The translations under genes and the position numbers were made by a program. 40,163 nucleotides of DNA from a virus (lineage: Duplodnaviria > Heunggongvirae > Uroviricota > Caudoviricetes). The DNA lies in the IMG/VR virus record IMGVR_UViG_2671180637_000025, positions 1 through 40,163 of that record; one strand, written 5' to 3'. Under the pieces are notes generated by a model. It was not told the origin of the DNA. It worked only from the letters and a program-made list of their open reading frames with translations, and did no database searches. This document shows positions 2,796 to 34,575 of this stretch, piece by piece (position 1 is the first letter of the stretch; each line of letters begins with the position of its first letter).

Positions 2796-3818
2796 TTACT
2801 CGAATTCTGGACGCATATCGTTAAGCGTCATCATGAATTTTTGGTGATATTCATCACCGAGCTTTTCAGCCATGGTGTTAATCTCATTTTCAGCGCGCTT
2901 GAACATCGTTTTTGCATCTTCAGCAGATGGATCTAGGCTATTAAGTATCGCGATGATATATTCTCGAGCTTCTTCTCGTTCTGAATCTGAAATTGGCGAC
3001 AGGTGTTGACGCTCATCGTCAACTACGGAATATTCACCAGTGATAACAGCTGCGTTATCTTGGCTAAGTCCAGCTTCAGCGCGCTCATCCATAACAACAG
3101 CCTTCTGCATTTCAATAGAAACAGGAAGATATTTGAACAGTCGGCGAATTACTGTTTTTTTAGCCATCTCATCGAAGTGATCAACCCATGGGCCACTGCT
3201 ACCGGCTTTGCTCAGTGCACGAACTTTCTCAACGTCTGCCCGGCTCATAACTTCAAATTGGACTCCGCCATCTTTCAGTCGTGCAACGGCGTAAACGTGC
3301 GTTAATTCTCCGCGGTCACCTGTTTCGCAAGGTAAATGCTCGAGCGTTTCTTCCAGGCCGTATGAGTAGCTGAATTTGTCGTTTGTATGTACGGTACGAG
3401 CCGAGATACTCAGGATCTGCCCAGAGCGGCGGGCAAGGTCAATCATTCCGCGATAGCCGATAATCAGCTGTGCTTCTGTAGATGCGGTTTCCCATCTTCC
3501 ATTTACTTTCTGGCGTTTGTCGAACGGTATCAGGTAAGCGTGTCCAAGAGCTCCGCCTGGTTCAAGACCCAATTGGGCACATTGCATGATTGCCCCCAGG
3601 AAGCTGGCTTGGTCGCATGATGCAAGTTTTGGAACCTTTCGGATCTCTGTGGTTGCTATGCGCGCCAGACGGTCTGCTGTCATGTGCTTTGGAAGTGCCA
3701 AAGCCATCTGAGCTTTAATTTTTGGGTCTGCCAGAAGTCCGGCCAGAGTTGTTGGTTTCTCATTATGATGTGCAACTTGGTTACCGGTAGCCGCTGCCTT
3801 AAGTGCATTGATAGACAT
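2796..3818 (-). CDS. recT: RecT-family single-strand annealing recombinase
   Basis: 340 aa; long collinear match to recalled E. coli RecT (HMTAERMIRIATTEIRKVP..., LIIGYRGMIDLARRSGQI..., THVYAVARLKDGG..QFEVM, KKTAIRRLFKYLPVSIE). Confidence 0.9.
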   Translation of the reverse strand: MSINALKAAATGNQVAHHNEKPTTLAGLLADPKIKAQMALALPKHMTADRLARIATTEIRKVPKLASCDQASFLGAIMQCAQLGLEPGGALGHAYLIPFDKRQKVNGRWETASTEAQLIIGYRGMIDLARRSGQILSISARTVHTNDKFSYSYGLEETLEHLPCETGDRGELTHVYAVARLKDGGVQFEVMSRADVEKVRALSKAGSSGPWVDHFDEMAKKTVIRRLFKYLPVSIEMQKAVVMDERAEAGLSQDNAAVITGEYSVVDDERQHLSPISDSEREEAREYIIAILNSLDPSAEDAKTMFKRAENEINTMAEKLGDEYHQKFMMTLNDMRPEFE

Positions 3819-3827
3819 TTTTTCTCC

Positions 3828-4727
3828 TTACTTCATTCTGAAGACGCGTTGTGTCGTTGTTGTTTTGAATTTTTCGAATAAATCAGGGTGTACTGACTGG
3901 AATAGCTTCTGGTCGAATCTGTTGCTGATCTGAGATTTCCATGTGCAGAGCGGCTTTCCGTCCAGTGTCAGGACTGAGTGCTCTTGCATGTACATCTTCA
4001 GCTTCTCTTCTGATATAGCTATTTCTTCTTCCAGTGATTTTCTGCGTGACTTCATGTCTCGTAGATCGTTGAATAGTGCGAGTGCCTTTCCGTCAGCCTC
4101 GATACTTGTCCCGGCATCTTTCTCAAACATCAGCGATACATCGCTTACGCTGGTAGCTTCCGGCGGGTTAAGATTTTTCACTCGGTCCCAGAAAGCGATT
4201 TCTTTTTCTAAGATCGCCTGGATAGTTTCTTCATCACGCTCAACCCGATAGATTCGGAAGTCGTCGCCACCGATAAGCACACCGAAAACGCATACCTGTT
4301 TGTTTGTAACCATCAACCCGTGCATGGCCTGGGCCGTGTAATGCACAGGAATTGCATCTGTCTGGATTTCTCCCCATTCTTTGGCTTTGAACGGACTAAC
4401 TGTTTTGATCTCAATGTTCTCGCCTGACGCTGCTTCTGCATCGATCTCAGCTGCAATAAAATCGTAATCACGGTGGATATAGCGGTTTCCGCGATGAACG
4501 ATTTCCATCCCCGTTTCCTCAGAAAGCAGGTCTATTACGTATGGCTCCATACGCTGGCCACGCGTGAAAACTTTCTGCTTGCTTGGGTCTACTGGTTTGA
4601 CACGTGGCTGGACCTTATCCAGATAAACCTCAAGCGGGGTGCGCCATGGGCTAATTCCAAGAATCCCTGCAACATCGCTTCCTCCGATGTATTTTGTTCT
4701 ATCCATGATTCCTGCGTTCCGCATCAT
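3828..4727 (-). CDS. YqaJ-type (lambda-exonuclease-like, PD-(D/E)XK) recombination exonuclease, partner of RecT
   Basis: 299 aa; N-terminal GGSDVAGILGISPWRTPLEVYL signature; directly upstream of recT; ATGA start/stop overlap with upstream ORF at 4724..4727. Confidence 0.85.
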   Translation of the reverse strand: MMRNAGIMDRTKYIGGSDVAGILGISPWRTPLEVYLDKVQPRVKPVDPSKQKVFTRGQRMEPYVIDLLSEETGMEIVHRGNRYIHRDYDFIAAEIDAEAASGENIEIKTVSPFKAKEWGEIQTDAIPVHYTAQAMHGLMVTNKQVCVFGVLIGGDDFRIYRVERDEETIQAILEKEIAFWDRVKNLNPPEATSVSDVSLMFEKDAGTSIEADGKALALFNDLRDMKSRRKSLEEEIAISEEKLKMYMQEHSVLTLDGKPLCTWKSQISNRFDQKLFQSVHPDLFEKFKTTTTQRVFRMK

Positions 4728-5197: not shown

Positions 5198-5274
5198 TTA
5201 CCGTTGGGGTAATGATTATGCGTATCTGGTTTGATGTCAATAGATATGAGTTAAAAAAATTACCCGTTAGGTAA
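5198..5274. promoter_or_regulatory. OL-like operator pair: TTACCGTTGGGGTAA (5198..5212) and TTACCCGTTAGGTAA (5260..5274)
   Basis: Two dyad-symmetric TTACC-N5-GGTAA 15-mers 62 bp apart, between the 3' end of the repressor gene and the first gene of the leftward operon. Confidence 0.65.
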
Positions 5275-5331: not shown

Positions 5332-5916
5332 TTATTGTTTGTTTTTTTCGTTCTGGCTGATGACAAATTCAATGTAACTTTCGATCTTTGCCTTCTCTGT
5401 TTCAGGTAACAATGCGTAGCGCGAGCGGTCATAGTTGATGGTCGCAGGGTCGTGCGGGTGAATCAGTAATTCATAGCCGTGACGCCCGAATGCGGATGCA
5501 ACATTCTCCAGGGTGGAAATGGAAACGCTGACCTCATTGTTTAACAGGCGGCTGATTGTCACCTGGGCGACGCCGGATGCGCGGTGAAGTTTTCCCTGCG
5601 TTGAAAGGTCGCGGCTTTCGCTCATCCAGCGTTCCAGGTTGTGAGCCGCCAGTTGACCAATGTCGCTTGGTCCGACAGGCTGAAAACCTTCCTGAGAAAG
5701 CGAGCGATCGATATCAAGCCAGTTACGGGGTTTATTGGCGGCAGCTTCAATTTTTCGCGCAACCTGGTCGCCGATAACCTTCTTGCCAAGAGCCCAGCGG
5801 TTTACCAGATTTGCCTGAGTTCCAAGTTTTTCTGCCATCCGCGTCTGAACACCATTGAATTCACGGTCGATCAAGTCGTTGAGATTTTGCCTGCGGACGT
5901 CCTGGATACTTTTCAT
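5332..5916 (-). CDS. Immunity repressor (CI analogue) with two HTH domains and no LexA/S24-type autocleavage domain
   Basis: 194 aa; divergent from the Cro-like gene across a three-operator region; XRE-like HTHs (MAEKLGTQANLVNRWALGKK and ASGVAQVTISRLLNNEVSVSISTL); no peptidase-like C-terminus. Confidence 0.75.
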   Translation of the reverse strand: MKSIQDVRRQNLNDLIDREFNGVQTRMAEKLGTQANLVNRWALGKKVIGDQVARKIEAAANKPRNWLDIDRSLSQEGFQPVGPSDIGQLAAHNLERWMSESRDLSTQGKLHRASGVAQVTISRLLNNEVSVSISTLENVASAFGRHGYELLIHPHDPATINYDRSRYALLPETEKAKIESYIEFVISQNEKNKQ

Positions 5917-5971: not shown

Positions 5972-6034
5972 TTACCCAACAGGTAAATGCACCCCATAGG
6001 TAACTATCCTTGATTTTTGTTACCTTATGGGTGA
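5972..6034. promoter_or_regulatory. OR-like tripartite operator: TTACCCAACAGGTAA (5972..5986), GCACCCCATAGGTAA (5989..6003, degenerate), TTACCTTATGGGTGA (6020..6034)
   Basis: Three TTACC-N5-GGTAA-type dyads in the 154-bp divergent region between repressor and Cro-like gene. Confidence 0.7.
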
Positions 6035-6070
6035 ATATTTATTATCTGAAATAAATATCAGGCAATAGCT

Positions 6071-8241: not shown

Positions 8242-8278
8242 TACCAGCGCGATAGCGCATTTTTTTACGTCTTGATAA

Positions 8279-8355
8279 TTACCTGTTGGGTAATAAAATA
8301 TTCTAAAATCTATTGATTTCGTGTCTTATGTGGTTTTTAATTACCTCGTGGGTAA
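8279..8355. promoter_or_regulatory. Second OL-type operator pair: TTACCTGTTGGGTAA (8279..8293) and TTACCTCGTGGGTAA (8341..8355)
   Basis: Two perfect TTACC-N5-GGTAA dyads, again 62 bp apart, bracketing TTGATT-N17-TTTAAT just upstream of the ATG at 8359. Confidence 0.6.
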
Positions 8356-31570: not shown

Positions 31571-31744
31571 GTGTTTTTAATTATTTTGAGTGTGATAATT
31601 TCTGGTGGGTTGTTATTTATTGACCGCTACAAATATTTTCTTAACCCTCAGACTCAAGCTATTTGCTGGTTCATCTTTGTTGTGCAGGGAATAGTTCTTG
31701 TTGCAAGCCTTATTGAGGGGAGGCCTCTGATTTTTACTGGGTAA
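31571..31744 (+). CDS. Small membrane protein (57 aa, two predicted TM helices)
   Basis: Not in ORF track; GTG 31571 behind AAGGAAG; translation VFLIILSVIISGGLLFIDRYKYFLNPQTQAICWFIFVVQGIVLVASLIEGRPLIFTG; AT-rich. Confidence 0.35.
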   Translation: MFLIILSVIISGGLLFIDRYKYFLNPQTQAICWFIFVVQGIVLVASLIEGRPLIFTG

Positions 31745-31756
31745 ATAGGTGACTAC

Positions 31757-32047
31757 ATGCAAGCTATAGGATTCATTGTTTATATCGTCGTTGGTCTTTT
31801 TCAGTTGGCAGCAATTATGGCTGGGCTTGAATCATGGTGGGGATTGCACTGGATAATTGCAGCCCCCATTGCTTTCATCGTGAGCTATATTCCATTTGTT
31901 GGAGCGATTGTTGGTATGGTTGGTGCTGTGGATGTATGGCTGTGGGAGTGGTGGCAGGCTGGCCTTCTCTTCTTTGGTGGGATCATCTTTGCTATTGTCT
32001 GCGGTGGAATGTCATCATTTTTCGAACGGCTATCATTCAGAAAATGA
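31757..32047 (+). CDS. Small Trp-rich membrane protein (96 aa, about three TM helices)
   Basis: RBS AGGTGA; strongly hydrophobic; followed by an intrinsic terminator. Confidence 0.55.
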   Translation: MQAIGFIVYIVVGLFQLAAIMAGLESWWGLHWIIAAPIAFIVSYIPFVGAIVGMVGAVDVWLWEWWQAGLLFFGGIIFAIVCGGMSSFFERLSFRK

Positions 32048-32062: not shown

Positions 32063-32087
32063 GGCCGCTTTCGCGGCCTTGTTTTTA
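32063..32087 (+). terminator. Intrinsic terminator after the membrane-protein gene
   Basis: Stem AGGCCGC / GCGGCCT with loop TTTC followed by TGTTTTT. Confidence 0.6.
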
Positions 32088-32247
32088 ACGAATGCCACCG
32101 CCGCCAGGGCGGGAATCCGCAGAACGCCCACCGCAGCGGGAGCCGTCAGCAGCAGTGTCGCTGTCGTGCTGACAACGACCGGCAAAGGCCTGAGTTGAAG
32201 CTACCAGAGACAACAAAACGAACAGTGCAGCAAATGCTTTTTTCATT
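32085..32247 (-). CDS. Possible small secreted peptide (53 aa)
   Basis: MKKAFAALFVLLSLVASTQAFA looks like a signal peptide; the mature part is short and another frame is also protein-like, so possibly frameshifted. Confidence 0.25.
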
Positions 32248-32315: not shown

Positions 32316-32340
32316 CACAAAAAAGCCCGCGGCGCGGGCT
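32316..32340 (-). terminator. Intrinsic terminator closing the two-gene minus-strand operon
   Basis: Stem AGCCCGC / GCGGGCT overlapping the stop codon, T-run on the minus strand. Confidence 0.55.
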
Positions 32341-32717
32341 TAATTAACTTCGAGGATAATAGAATCTTTAGACTTGAATCCCACTTTCCTCATGGCTGTA
32401 ATGACGTTTTGGATAATCCACGTTTTCCCAAACTCTCTTTCGTGTACAATGGCGCAAGGAAAATGAAGGGCGCTTTTGTTGCACTTTATGGTGAAAGTTG
32501 TACCTTCGGCAAAATCCAAAACAGTCTGCAGATGTGCAGATATAAACGATTTAAACACATCTTCAAGCTCAGCAAGAGTAATTGGCGGTTTGTTCCTCTC
32601 GTCGTTCAGGCGTTCATATGCTGCATGAAATGAAAAGTGAATTCTTGCCGCATCTTCTTGCAAGATCTCGTTAATCTCATCCTCAAGATCAATGAGTTGT
32701 TGTTCTGTTATAGACAT
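32340..32717 (-). CDS. Hypothetical protein (125 aa), distal gene of the island operon
   Basis: Overlaps the proximal gene by 10 nt; AT-rich; no recognisable motif. Confidence 0.5.
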   Translation of the reverse strand: MSITEQQLIDLEDEINEILQEDAARIHFSFHAAYERLNDERNKPPITLAELEDVFKSFISAHLQTVLDFAEGTTFTIKCNKSALHFPCAIVHEREFGKTWIIQNVITAMRKVGFKSKDSIILEVN

Positions 32718-32926
32718 AGATAACGGGAGGTCGCCTCACTTATTTTTTGATTTAATTCATCATCATTGGATGCACGTACAGTAGCAACATGCTTACTTTG
32801 GCGTAGGGTCCCAATTCTGATATCAAATTCTTCATTATCGAAAGAGTCAACGAAAACAGCTTTACCAGTTTCTGGATGGTAAAAAGAGGCATAGTTTTGG
32901 TTGAGTTGCATATCAAATTTAAACAT
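32708..32926 (-). CDS. Hypothetical protein (72 aa), proximal gene of the island operon
   Basis: Strong RBS GGGAGG before ATG 32926; operator-like site and TTGATT -35 upstream. Confidence 0.5.
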   Translation of the reverse strand: MFKFDMQLNQNYASFYHPETGKAVFVDSFDNEEFDIRIGTLRQSKHVATVRASNDDELNQKISEATSRYLCL

Positions 32927-33043
32927 ATCATCCTCCCATACGGGAACAGACGTGACTTACATACGGTGTGATTTTGACTAGTTAACTTTCTGCAGCAAAA
33001 CCATCACGGTAACTACAAACTAAAATGTTACAAATCAACTTTC

Positions 33044-33058
33044 TTACCTTTGGGGTAA
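33044..33058. promoter_or_regulatory. Operator-like site TTACCTTTGGGGTAA upstream of the island operon
   Basis: Perfect TTACC-N5-GGTAA about 120 bp upstream of ATG 32926; a degenerate copy at 33003..33017. Confidence 0.5.
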
Positions 33059-33123
33059 TAGTACGCTATTCACCTGCAATCTGTACAGAATTATTTAAAG
33101 GCACATCCCTGTGCCGCCGCCCG

Positions 33124-33810
33124 TCAGAAGAACCATGCCTTGTCGTTGATGTACTCCGCGTGCGTCTGGATATCACGCAGGCATTTGCTCACACCGACGA
33201 TGTAGCAGAACATGGTGGTCAGTTCCGCCGCCGCGCCCGATACATCATGCCCGTCGTCCTGCAACTGGTTTAGCAGATTCATCAGCAGTGAGTTCTCCGT
33301 CAGGCCGAGAACACCAGACGGCGAGTGAATCAGGCTACGGTAGCCTGGCTTCAGTGGGGCACTGTAGGTTTTGTTCTCTATCTTCATTGCCTGCATCACT
33401 GCTGATGCTGTGGCGTTGGCTACCTGGTCGGCAACCATCTTTATGCGTTCTTCCTGCGGGAGCGAGTTTTTAATGTAACTTCCGGTGCGGCGGATCTGAG
33501 GAAGAACCTCACCTGTAACCCATTTACGAAAGCGGTAGGGGATAGTGCCTGGTGTCACTGCGTCGCGGCAGCGGAGGATCAGTGTGTAGAGGCCTGACTC
33601 GTTGATAATATTGGTTTCGCCTTGACGGCCTAAGTTAAATTTAGCCCTTTCATCATCATCAAGAGATTTTATTGACATAGTGGGGTTTGTCAGTTGAAGA
33701 GCTTTAATAACGTCTTTGGCAACAAACCAAGGATTTCCATCAATAACAATGGCTCGAATGGTTGCTTCTGATTCAAAATGAAAAACAGATGGGGTTACGT
33801 TAGCAGTCAT
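33124..33810 (-). CDS. Antirepressor, Bro-N-type N-terminal domain plus C-terminal domain shared with the neighbouring small ORF
   Basis: Start at ATG 33810 behind AGGTGA (track extension to 33963 runs through a terminator); Bro-N signature VFHFESEATIRAIVIDGNPWFVAKDV. Confidence 0.7.
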   Translation of the reverse strand: MTANVTPSVFHFESEATIRAIVIDGNPWFVAKDVIKALQLTNPTMSIKSLDDDERAKFNLGRQGETNIINESGLYTLILRCRDAVTPGTIPYRFRKWVTGEVLPQIRRTGSYIKNSLPQEERIKMVADQVANATASAVMQAMKIENKTYSAPLKPGYRSLIHSPSGVLGLTENSLLMNLLNQLQDDGHDVSGAAAELTTMFCYIVGVSKCLRDIQTHAEYINDKAWFF

Positions 33811-33962
33811 AGTGATCACCTTTGTAGTTAGGTTAATCACCACTACCGACGCCAATCGGTTGGTGGTGAACTGTGCAGGGTTGGCGTAACCGGCTACAAA
33901 GGACCCGGCGCACCTTTCGGTGCCCCCACACAGCCCACCATAGAATAGGTGCGCTTTACACA

Positions 33963-34076: not shown

Positions 34077-34091
34077 TTACCGTAAAGGTAA
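34077..34091. promoter_or_regulatory. Operator-like site TTACCGTAAAGGTAA upstream of the Bro-N antirepressor gene
   Basis: Perfect TTACC-N5-GGTAA. Confidence 0.5.
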
Positions 34092-34122
34092 ATATAAGCA
34101 CTCCTCTTGGTAATTTCAAATC

Positions 34123-34380
34123 TTATCTGGTTTGTTTTCGTAATTGTTCGGCACAATAGTCGAGATGTGTTTGCAGATCCCGCATAGACATCTGTGAGCT
34201 GGTGACGTAGTTAATCAGTGCAGTCAGTTCGGCAAGTGGGCCATCGACATTAAATCCATCCTTATCGAGATCCAGGAGTAATTTCATCAAGTGCGATCCC
34301 TCCACTAGTGATCTGACGCCTCCCGGCGTGTGAATCCTTTCGGTAAATCCGTCTTCCAGTGGATAGTGATACTGCTGCAT
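34123..34380 (-). CDS. Small antirepressor-domain protein (85 aa), SOS-regulated candidate
   Basis: Start at ATG 34380 behind GGAGAAG (track extension to 34503 would cross the LexA box and operator); by-eye ~40-45% identity to the C-terminal ~80 aa of the adjacent antirepressor. Confidence 0.55.
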   Translation of the reverse strand: MQQYHYPLEDGFTERIHTPGGVRSLVEGSHLMKLLLDLDKDGFNVDGPLAELTALINYVTSSQMSMRDLQTHLDYCAEQLRKQTR

Positions 34381-34399: not shown

Positions 34400-34419
34400 A
34401 ACTGTATATTTATACAGTA
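34400..34419. promoter_or_regulatory. LexA (SOS) box AACTGTATATTTATACAGTA
   Basis: 19/20 match to the recalled consensus TACTGTATATATATACAGTA; 20 bp upstream of ATG 34380 on the minus strand. Confidence 0.8.
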
Positions 34420-34456: not shown

Positions 34457-34471
34457 TTACCCGAAAGGTAA
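34457..34471. promoter_or_regulatory. Operator-like site TTACCCGAAAGGTAA in the divergent region between small antirepressor gene and tailspike
   Basis: Perfect TTACC-N5-GGTAA; GGTAA half-site also at 34517..34521. Confidence 0.5.
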
Positions 34472-34575
34472 TATCTGTTCGTATTTATAGGTTGTCTATC
34501 CATATGTGGTTTTTCGGGTAATAGAATAACCGGATATGCGGCGCAACGGGTGCTGCGACTATCTGGAGAATTAAC

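Follow-up and report, generated by a model that had tools for sequence, protein, structure and literature searches.

Two overlapping genes in an exchangeable slot of a phiV10/TL-2011b-type phage may encode a RegB/RelE-like RNase toxin and its inhibitor

What is the function of two small, overlapping genes that lie last in the leftward antirepressor unit of an E. coli prophage, between its virion-protein genes and its tailspike gene? The window analysed here, a 40,163-nucleotide (nt) stretch of phage DNA (IMG/VR record IMGVR_UViG_2671180637_000025) taken at its full length, carries such a pair on the minus strand: a gene for a 72-amino-acid (aa) acidic protein (32708..32926), followed by a gene for a 125-aa protein (32340..32717). 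The phage belongs to the phiV10/TL-2011b type, genus Uetakevirus. TL-2011b, which is listed in that genus (PMC9782041), has the same gene order as the window and a repressor that is 99% identical, and a Klebsiella phage carrying the pair is also classified in Uetakevirus; an assignment to the P22-like phages was dropped, as gene order and repressor point to phiV10/TL-2011b. A preliminary description of the locus, made from the letters of the DNA, recognised no family in either protein and offered three options: a toxin-antitoxin (TA) pair, a pair for anti-defence or host takeover, and a small module for abortive infection. The answer that we favour, at a little under an even chance, is that the two genes encode a ribonuclease (RNase) toxin of the RegB/RelE-like kind and its inhibitor, carried as exchangeable cargo and switched on together with the antirepressor unit.

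The two open reading frames (ORFs) are real genes, as they have 67 and 30 homologous clusters across many genera in which length and motifs are conserved, and because they match the unnamed PHROGs 14518 and 14630 end to end. As the preliminary description stated, they overlap by 10 nt: the sequence ATGTCTATAA (32708..32717, minus strand) contains both the stop codon of the smaller gene and the start codon of the larger. The Shine-Dalgarno sequence of the 72-aa gene, GGGAGG (32932..32937, minus strand), was likewise correctly placed, lies 5 nt ahead of the ATG at 32926, and is kept in the aligned Klebsiella copies, while no Shine-Dalgarno sequence is found within 5–10 nt upstream of the second ATG. 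Because the 125-aa gene lacks a separate ribosome site and starts within the 72-aa gene, its translation is probably coupled to, and dependent on, that of the 72-aa gene. A 10-nt overlap, just one ribosome site, and a shared promoter region and terminator give the pair the layout of a type II TA operon. The block is also as AT-rich as had been described: the GC content of the cargo, 38.7% against 49.2% for the window, is the lowest of any 702-base-pair (bp) stretch in the whole window. In the minimum-energy fold, a small hairpin, UCCC-GUAU-GGGA (32934..32945, minus strand), pairs with part of the Shine-Dalgarno sequence, and in Klebsiella its stem is kept while its loop is changed (TCCC-GCAC-GGGA); we regard it as a weak hint of structure, because the whole 5′ untranslated region folds no better than shuffled sequences (z = −0.47).

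The 125-aa protein is a free-standing copy of a ~115-residue domain, for which a profile search of 1.84 billion representative proteins returned 638 clusters at an expectation value (E) ≤0.001. A 5704-aa protein with nine reported copies of the domain was rejected as a false positive, being a repetitive surface protein with no match to a broader profile. Across 155 sequences, residues H31, R36 and R110 are conserved in 100%, residues R41, N42, P87 and T107 in 99%, and residues E50, M109, K111 and F114 in 98%. The structural model of the 125-aa protein is weak; its best structural matches are T4 RegB and then RelE-type toxins, with CdiA-CT tRNases also among the matches. T4 RegB, an early and toxic RNase that works without metal, inactivates mRNAs at GGAG, has His48 and His68 as probable catalytic residues, and shares its fold with RelE and YoeB (PMC3014915). 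Local hhalign comparison of the 155-sequence domain alignment with a RegB profile rebuilt from 80 sequences gives a probability of 41.7% (score 28.9, 90 columns), in which H31 is aligned to His48 and R36 to Arg52. In the controls, the reversed profile scores 9.5 and 40 block shuffles score 17.8 on average and 27.2 at best. The wider domain family is basic, with a median isoelectric point (pI) of 9.3, as is RegB (9.05). A RegB/RelE-like RNase is the best-supported activity of the 125-aa protein, short of an established one, and the protein falls outside the RegB family as currently defined.

The 72-aa protein (phrog_14630, E = 9.5e-50) is predicted by AlphaFold to form four antiparallel strands, a beta meander, followed by a C-terminal helix (predicted local distance difference test score 90.5). 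A structure search with this model gave no convincing relative, its weak matches including toxin-immunity proteins and phage-encoded enzyme inhibitors. Profile and structure comparison of both proteins, which the preliminary description had suggested, yields a confident model without a convincing relative for the smaller protein and a weak RegB match for the larger one. All of the small partners carry a near-invariant (V/I)(D/E)SFDN..F motif, and the median pI of the family is 4.56. No DNA-binding domain is detected in the 72-aa protein, either as a Pfam match or as a DNA-binding structural relative; type II antitoxins bind DNA and autoregulate, and the operator upstream of this gene is the phage's. 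The 72-aa family is not found among the 149 best-scoring domain representatives, fused forms included, apart from one hit, a 132-aa metagenomic ORF (P0098) in which the last part of the small gene runs into the first part of the large one; it looks like a frameshift or gene-calling artefact and was rejected as a true fusion. A 132-aa ORF on a Pseudomonas silvicola megaplasmid (locus L026, 2890-3288) may be of the same joined kind. The small partner accompanies only the free-standing subfamily of the domain, on elements that coexist with their host, which is what a toxin/antidote relation predicts.

Beyond the window, the pair is found in Klebsiella Uetakevirus prophages, always after the Bro-N gene; in a Chromobacterium siphovirus prophage, after a pRha/ANT antirepressor gene, where the 125-aa ORF had been left uncalled; in a Pantoea allii chromosome, where its neighbours are transporter and acyltransferase genes and the vicinity holds no phage genes; on a contig with a TrwC relaxase and an integrase; on a contig adjoining a tail-morphogenesis gene; and on other metagenomic contigs. 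The small partners of these pairs are homologous to each other by alignment, and the spacing of the two genes ranges from a 26-nt overlap to a 4-nt gap. The pair is therefore patchy across mobile elements and chromosomes, as is the autonomous spread of type II TA systems. In the Chromobacterium violaceum prophage (locus L010, 6215-6592), the 125-aa ORF follows a 69-aa gene, and the pair forms part of an inserted Arc/Arc/Ant block flanked by the tail-chaperone and tape-measure genes. The isolated-phage and plasmid collections hold 2 copies each. On the Aeromonas salmonicida plasmid pS44-1 (locus L025, 2971-3294), the domain gene starts right after IS5, with qnrVC6 and ISCR1 close by, and both its N-terminus and the partner gene are missing.

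Several observations weigh against an RNase toxin pair wired into the antirepressor unit. Neither protein has a match in Pfam, NCBIfam or PADLOC; to that extent the preliminary description was right to recognise no family, although the 125-aa protein does belong to the widespread phage domain. For the 125-aa protein, Pfam is blank even at E up to 10, including REGB_T4, ParE and YafO, and a profile search of the sequences in the PDB with the domain alignment returned nothing meaningful and did not find the RegB chain. The hhalign signal resides mostly in one short motif, because block shuffles that keep this motif reach nearly the same score, and RegB His68 is aligned to position 56 of the domain, which is variable. 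The free-standing subfamily has a median pI of 5.9 and the 125-aa protein itself a pI of 5.16, which is unusual for an RNase toxin. The probable promoter of the pair, described below, matches at 8 of 12 positions and is not called by our sigma-70 scan, so that it is weak in the window. Lastly, the fusion of the domain in lytic phages to cytidylyltransferase/NMN adenylyltransferase-like and P-loop kinase modules (NMN, nicotinamide mononucleotide) fits nucleotide metabolism as well. Among 33 domain sequences, weak Pfam matches show no recurrent family, and the 25 listed of the 44 weakly matched families do not include REGB_T4.

The fusions to nucleotide-enzyme modules lead to the main rival, a non-toxic alternative, which we consider unlikely: the 125-aa protein would be an enzyme or binding protein, with the 72-aa protein as a helper subunit, acting on a nucleotide or signal, for example by cleaving or sequestering a cyclic or nicotinamide adenine dinucleotide-derived defence signal, in lytic-phase anti-defence or metabolic takeover. 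Among the best 150 domain hits, 44 are free-standing, and the domain lies at the N-terminus in 48, at the C-terminus in 43 and internally in 15; in PHROGs it forms the C-terminus of phrog_23027. It is mostly fused to nucleotide enzymes in large lytic phages. Specifically, a Pfam scan of 94 fused proteins of 200–1300 aa identifies cytidylyltransferase-like partners in 18, DUF5824 in 15, Zeta-toxin/AAA_33 P-loop kinases in 7, and DUF3008, PAP2, HNH and GNAT in a few cases each. One fused protein shows faint matches to NMN adenylyltransferase and kinases, and one lies in a T4-like early nucleotide-metabolism region, adjoining RNA ligase, a DnaB-type helicase and ribonucleotide reductase; the fused forms are mostly metagenomic, and a T4-like phage was shown to carry this one. 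The invariant residues (His, Arg, Thr and Lys) could serve in phosphate binding too, the free-standing subfamily is not basic, and the operator and LexA wiring of the locus fit a lytic-phase function. Set against this, the restriction of the small partner to the host-resident, free-standing form is as the need for an antidote predicts, and the pair occurs in the Pantoea chromosome and in a conjugative-type element, away from phage. Moreover, the best fold matches are RNase toxins rather than nucleotide-binding folds, and known defence and anti-defence models are unmatched, the sole match of the pair in PADLOC-DB 2.0 being a chance-level one to Cas8b (E = 0.0092).

The setting of the pair argues for a toxin module in another way. 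Alignment of the window with phage TL-2011b and E. coli strain 4/1-1 defines the boundaries of a cargo slot: homology is lost directly after a 15-nt palindrome, TTACC-N5-GGTAA (33044..33058), and regained exactly at the stem of an intrinsic terminator (AAGCCCGCGCCGCGGGCTT followed by TTTTGT; 32323..32341, minus strand; a stem of 8 pairs with 6 G-C, and a T run) that is kept in both. Both ends of the slot are present in ~480 E. coli genomes, whereas the 831-bp block as a whole is found in just 4 of the 5426 complete E. coli genomes and in one phage record, so that the pair is carried by 4 of the ~485 E. coli genomes with slot flanks. Across E. coli prophages, the slot region holds at least six alternative cargos, among them a 59-aa ORF with a YafO-family toxin (TL-2011b and many E. 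coli genomes), a 210-aa protein with no known function, a DUF4760 protein, a DUF2335 protein and additional unnamed sets. The TL-2011b toxin matches PF13957 (YafO) at 26.3 bits against a cut-off of 25; an allelic cargo of the very same slot is thus a toxin pair, which favours a toxin module here. On the compared loci, alternative cargos lie at 3046-3678 (L003), 3933-4478 (L005) and 3967-4467 (L008).

Because the palindrome, the −10 element next to it and the terminator lie in conserved flanks common to unrelated cargos, they read as fixtures of the slot and not as the operon's own. The preliminary description had assigned both a TTACC-N5-GGTAA operator and a terminator to the operon; both signals are real, the terminator serving unrelated cargos and the palindrome being the slot's and phage-wide. 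Variable presence, atypical composition and a flanking promoter and terminator give the pair the structure of a moron. Even if it should prove not to be a toxin system, the pair is a clean case of cassette exchange at exact promoter/terminator breakpoints. The slot and its neighbourhood are possibly an uncharacterised hotspot for accessory or defence genes.

The palindrome is much more significant than the preliminary description could know. With up to one mismatch, it occurs at 13 sites in the window, against 0.76 ± 0.81 expected, and none of 100 shuffles reached 13. The sites start at 5198, 5260, 5972, 6020, 6357, 8279, 8341, 12511, 12529, 15478, 33044, 34077 and 34457; they are intergenic, and several lie on the best-scoring promoters. 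Among all perfect 5+5 inverted repeats with a 5-nt loop, the TTACC arm has 10 copies in the window and every other arm at most 2; in TL-2011b and Klebsiella phage Kp4865-1, too, it alone exceeds 2 copies. TL-2011b has 14 sites at corresponding positions, with conserved arms and differing loops, and Kp4865-1 has 10 perfect sites. The repressor of Kp4865-1 is only 45% identical and goes with the same palindrome. The palindrome is also found ahead of the small terminase gene and the portal region.

Five of the sites fall on promoters called independently by the sigma-70 scan. At 5240..5212 (minus strand, TTGACA-17-AATCAT) and 34119..34091 (minus strand, TTGAAA-17-TATATT), the last T of the −10 element is the first base of the site (5198..5212 and 34077..34091, respectively); at 34498..34470 (minus strand, TAGACA-17-GATATT), −10 element and site (34457..34471) overlap by 2 nt; and at 6017..6045 (plus strand, TTGTTA-17-TATTAT) and 8272..8299 (plus strand, TTGATA-16-TAAAAT), the site (6020..6034 and 8279..8293) lies within the spacer. 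The promoters at 5240..5212 and 6017..6045 flank a putative repressor gene (5332..5916, minus strand), the 194-aa product of which has two helix-turn-helix regions (YdaS-like and HTH_3) and no autocleavage domain (S24), which fits induction driven by an antirepressor. Because the palindrome is located on promoters either side of this gene, it is most likely, judged from position, the operator of the phage repressor or of the 76-aa Cro-like protein, and probably the immunity operator of phiV10/TL-2011b-like phages.

At the slot, the same arrangement is found. The operator of the leftward early promoter reads ATTACCCCAACGGTAA and that of the slot ATTACCCCAAAGGTAA. The probable slot promoter (33058..33087, minus strand) has a −10 element, TACTAT (33063..33058), the last T of which is the first base of the operator, as in the layout at 5240..5212, 34119..34091 and 34498..34470, where the −10 element abuts the operator. 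Its −35 element could be TGTACA (33087..33082, 18-nt spacer) or TTGCAG (33079..33074, 10-nt spacer). In TL-2011b, the −35 element is TTGCAG with a 17-nt spacer, and a 7-bp deletion in the window (~33064-33074) reduces this spacer from 17 to 10 nt, which may change expression of the slot; judged by alignment length, the deletion is apparently common to all E. coli carriers of the pair. The Klebsiella slot promoter is TTGCAA-17-TATATT followed by TTACC-N5-GGTAC. The preliminary description had instead proposed a TTGATT −35 element overlapped by the operator, which does not agree with the coordinates: TTGATT lies at 33038..33033, 5 nt downstream of the palindrome and without overlap. TTGATT-17-TAGTTA was rejected as the main promoter, with 2 of 6 matches in its −10 element, no call in the sigma-70 scan, and a position downstream of the conserved −10 element and operator. 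A stem-loop just past the stop of the Bro-N gene, GGCACA-GGGA-TGTGCC (33100..33115, minus strand), recurs at the same place in Klebsiella with both sides of the stem changed (GGCGC-AGGGAA-GCGCC); its T run is poor (TTTAAATAATT), and it may attenuate read-through transcription into the slot.

Upstream of the slot, a near-consensus LexA box, tACTGTATAAATATACAGTta, is located at 34402..34417, between the promoter/operator at 34498..34470 and the gene 34123..34380, which suggests that this small gene encodes an SOS-induced small antirepressor. E. coli strain 4/1-1 has this box too (locus L003, 5131-5148). The 85-aa product of 34123-34380 has a C-terminal domain (phrog_450) paralogous to the C-terminus of the Bro-N protein (phrog_15539), and, in a related phage, the lytic cycle is promoted by overexpressed Bro-N protein (PMC9782041). 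For 34123-34380 and the Bro-N gene that comes next, 33124-33834 (both minus strand), the ORF finder extends the genes upstream to 126 and 279 aa, where RefSeq keeps the shorter forms. Because of the LexA box, the operators and the role of Bro-N upstream, the slot would form the far end of a leftward unit under SOS and immunity control. A phage-wide palindrome at the slot argues for expression of the pair on derepression or induction rather than constitutively in the lysogen, and expression at induction or infection is the most economical reading of this wiring. Such timing would favour host takeover over classical abortive infection. The proposal of the preliminary description thus survives as a toxin/antidote-type module, through the coupling of the genes, the recurrence of the pair on four backgrounds, the YafO allele and the weak RegB/RelE-like signal, whereas its promoter model was wrong and the operator shifts the balance from abortive infection to takeover.

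The opposite timing, a toxin and antidote expressed in the lysogen as an abortive-infection, superinfection-exclusion or prophage-stabilising 'moron', is distinctly unlikely in our view. It would agree with an AT-rich, recently acquired block bounded by promoter and terminator, and with a hotspot whose cargos include the YafO pair, DUF4760 and DUF2335; a comparable variable region of P22-like phages, the 'ant moron', is in rapid flux and includes the exclusion gene sieA (PMC2629481). The slot promoter is altered by the 7-bp deletion, so that an unregulated promoter such as TTGATT could be in use. Yet that promoter has a very poor −10 element, whereas the conserved −10 element abuts the operator as at the immunity promoter and two promoters of the antirepressor region, which points to repression. 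In addition, none of the slot cargos tested matches a PADLOC model, and the antidote has no DNA-binding domain for autoregulation.

We think it very unlikely that the pair serves the antirepressor/immunity switch as an accessory regulator, modulating for instance Bro-N, Ant or the repressor. In two phage types that are unrelated, the pair does directly follow an antirepressor-type gene (Bro-N in one, pRha/ANT in the other) and shares its operator with the antirepressor genes, but the slot accepts unrelated cargos while the Bro-N gene is retained, the pair is also found with no antirepressor nearby, and lytic phages, where there is no immunity switch, carry the domain. That the ORFs are ordinary structural or housekeeping proteins, or not genes at all, has next to no probability despite their location between virion-protein genes and the tailspike gene, given a pair that few slot-bearing genomes carry, that unrelated genes replace, that is found outside phages and that keeps its length and motifs across many genera; confident homology to structural or housekeeping proteins, which the preliminary description had named as a result that would count against its proposal, was looked for in Pfam and PHROGs and none was found.

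Taken as an RNase toxin and inhibitor, the two genes would constitute a self-contained, horizontally mobile toxin/antidote-type module to which the slot supplies promoter, operator and terminator. The 72-aa protein, made first off the shared message, would most likely bind and neutralise the 125-aa protein. The latter would most likely cut RNA, probably mRNA, without a metal cofactor, as hinted by the invariant His/Arg/Arg/Thr/Arg(Lys) set and a predicted helix-then-sheet fold resembling RegB and RelE-type endoribonucleases. Because the slot operator matches those of the immunity promoters and the unit starts with a LexA box, the pair would most likely be silent in a stable lysogen and come on with the antirepressor genes at SOS induction or infection. 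Active 125-aa protein would then shut down or reshape host and early translation.

Further small genes lie past the slot terminator. A 53-aa gene (32085-32246, minus strand), directly beyond the terminator, has a signal-peptide-like start (MKKAFAALFVLLSLVASTQAFAGRC), matches phrog_14503 ('membrane associated protein'), is conserved and adjoins every slot cargo. Two very hydrophobic small ORFs on the plus strand, 31571-31744 (57 aa) and 31757-32047 (96 aa), follow the 815-aa virion-protein gene; the 96-aa ORF matches phrog_3075, with only a faint holin-like match in Pfam.

A broader proposal, which is possible and which we put forward with considerable doubt, is that the ~115-residue H-R-R-T-R domain marks out a large family, so far unrecognised, of phage endoribonucleases of the RegB kind or of phosphotransfer enzymes related to them, with 638 clusters or more at 50% identity. 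In lytic phages its members would be fused to nucleotide-metabolising modules and lack an inhibitor; in temperate phages and integrative elements a free-standing member would be restrained by a dedicated ~70-aa inhibitor of new fold; and in Uetakevirus prophages it would also be wired to SOS and immunity. The pair would then act as a temperate-phage 'RegB plus anti-RegB' switch set off at induction. A review of RegB raises the possibility of an 'anti-RegB' partner (PMC3014915), and a literature search for 'RegB-like' plus 'toxin' returned nothing. If the reading of the pair as an RNase toxin and inhibitor is right, a phage domain absent from Pfam, NCBIfam, PADLOC and the PDB would gain a name and a testable activity, RegB-type mRNA-inactivating nucleases would extend past the T4-like phages, the sole group known so far, and a natural inhibitor would become available as a reagent and a route to mechanism. 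The phiV10/TL-2011b-like slot would have repeatedly gained RNase toxin pairs (YafO and this pair) under the phage's own operator, offering a simple system for the role of toxins during induction.

How does the pair compare with known systems? The 'ant moron'/immunity I region of P22-like phages is likewise a variable, non-morphogenetic block ahead of the tailspike, with antirepressor genes and changing accessory genes (PMC2629481). Here, in contrast, the phage is of the phiV10/TL-2011b type, Mnt and Arc are not seen in the window, the promoters carry the main-immunity palindrome, and the unit carries a LexA box. Secreted RNase toxins paired with globular immunity proteins (barnase-barstar, CdiA-CT/CdiI and Rhs/Tri) resemble the pair in the small, folded, acidic protein, here the proposed inhibitor, that goes with one toxin subfamily, and differ in that the pair has no secretion or delivery domain and its proposed inhibitor gene comes first. 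Type II TA systems of the RelE/YoeB/HigB/ParE kind share with it two small, co-directional, overlapping genes with the antidote first and a patchy spread over prophages, a conjugative-type element and chromosomes. In contrast to them, the proposed antidote here is a folded beta meander in which no DNA-binding domain is recognised, none of the toxin family models matches, the slot of the phage provides promoter and operator, and the 125-aa domain is also fused into large lytic-phage enzymes.

In YafO-YafN, an SOS-regulated mRNA interferase pair, the likeness is one of place. In TL-2011b and many prophages of E. coli, exactly this slot is taken by a toxin of the YafO family preceded by a small ORF. 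Chromosomal yafNO is located in the LexA-controlled dinB operon, and the slot here ends a unit that starts with a LexA box. There is no sequence relation between the two, in that the YafO_toxin model misses the 125-aa protein and the partners are unrelated. T4 RegB (PF10715; 2hx6) differs from the domain in lacking similarity at the level of HMMER, in the absence of a conserved counterpart of His68, in the domain's own invariant set (R41-N42, P87 and T107-x-M-R-K), and in the acidic character of the copy in the window; RegB is also confined to T4-like phages and has no adjacent inhibitor gene. Nevertheless, the weak model of the domain suggests, as in RegB, an extra N-terminal helix, two helices and a beta sheet after them, the wider domain family is likewise basic, is carried by phages and lies in early-gene regions, and the F-S/T-x-H-F-x-D-R motif of the domain aligns with Y-S-x-H48-L-L-D-R52 of RegB.

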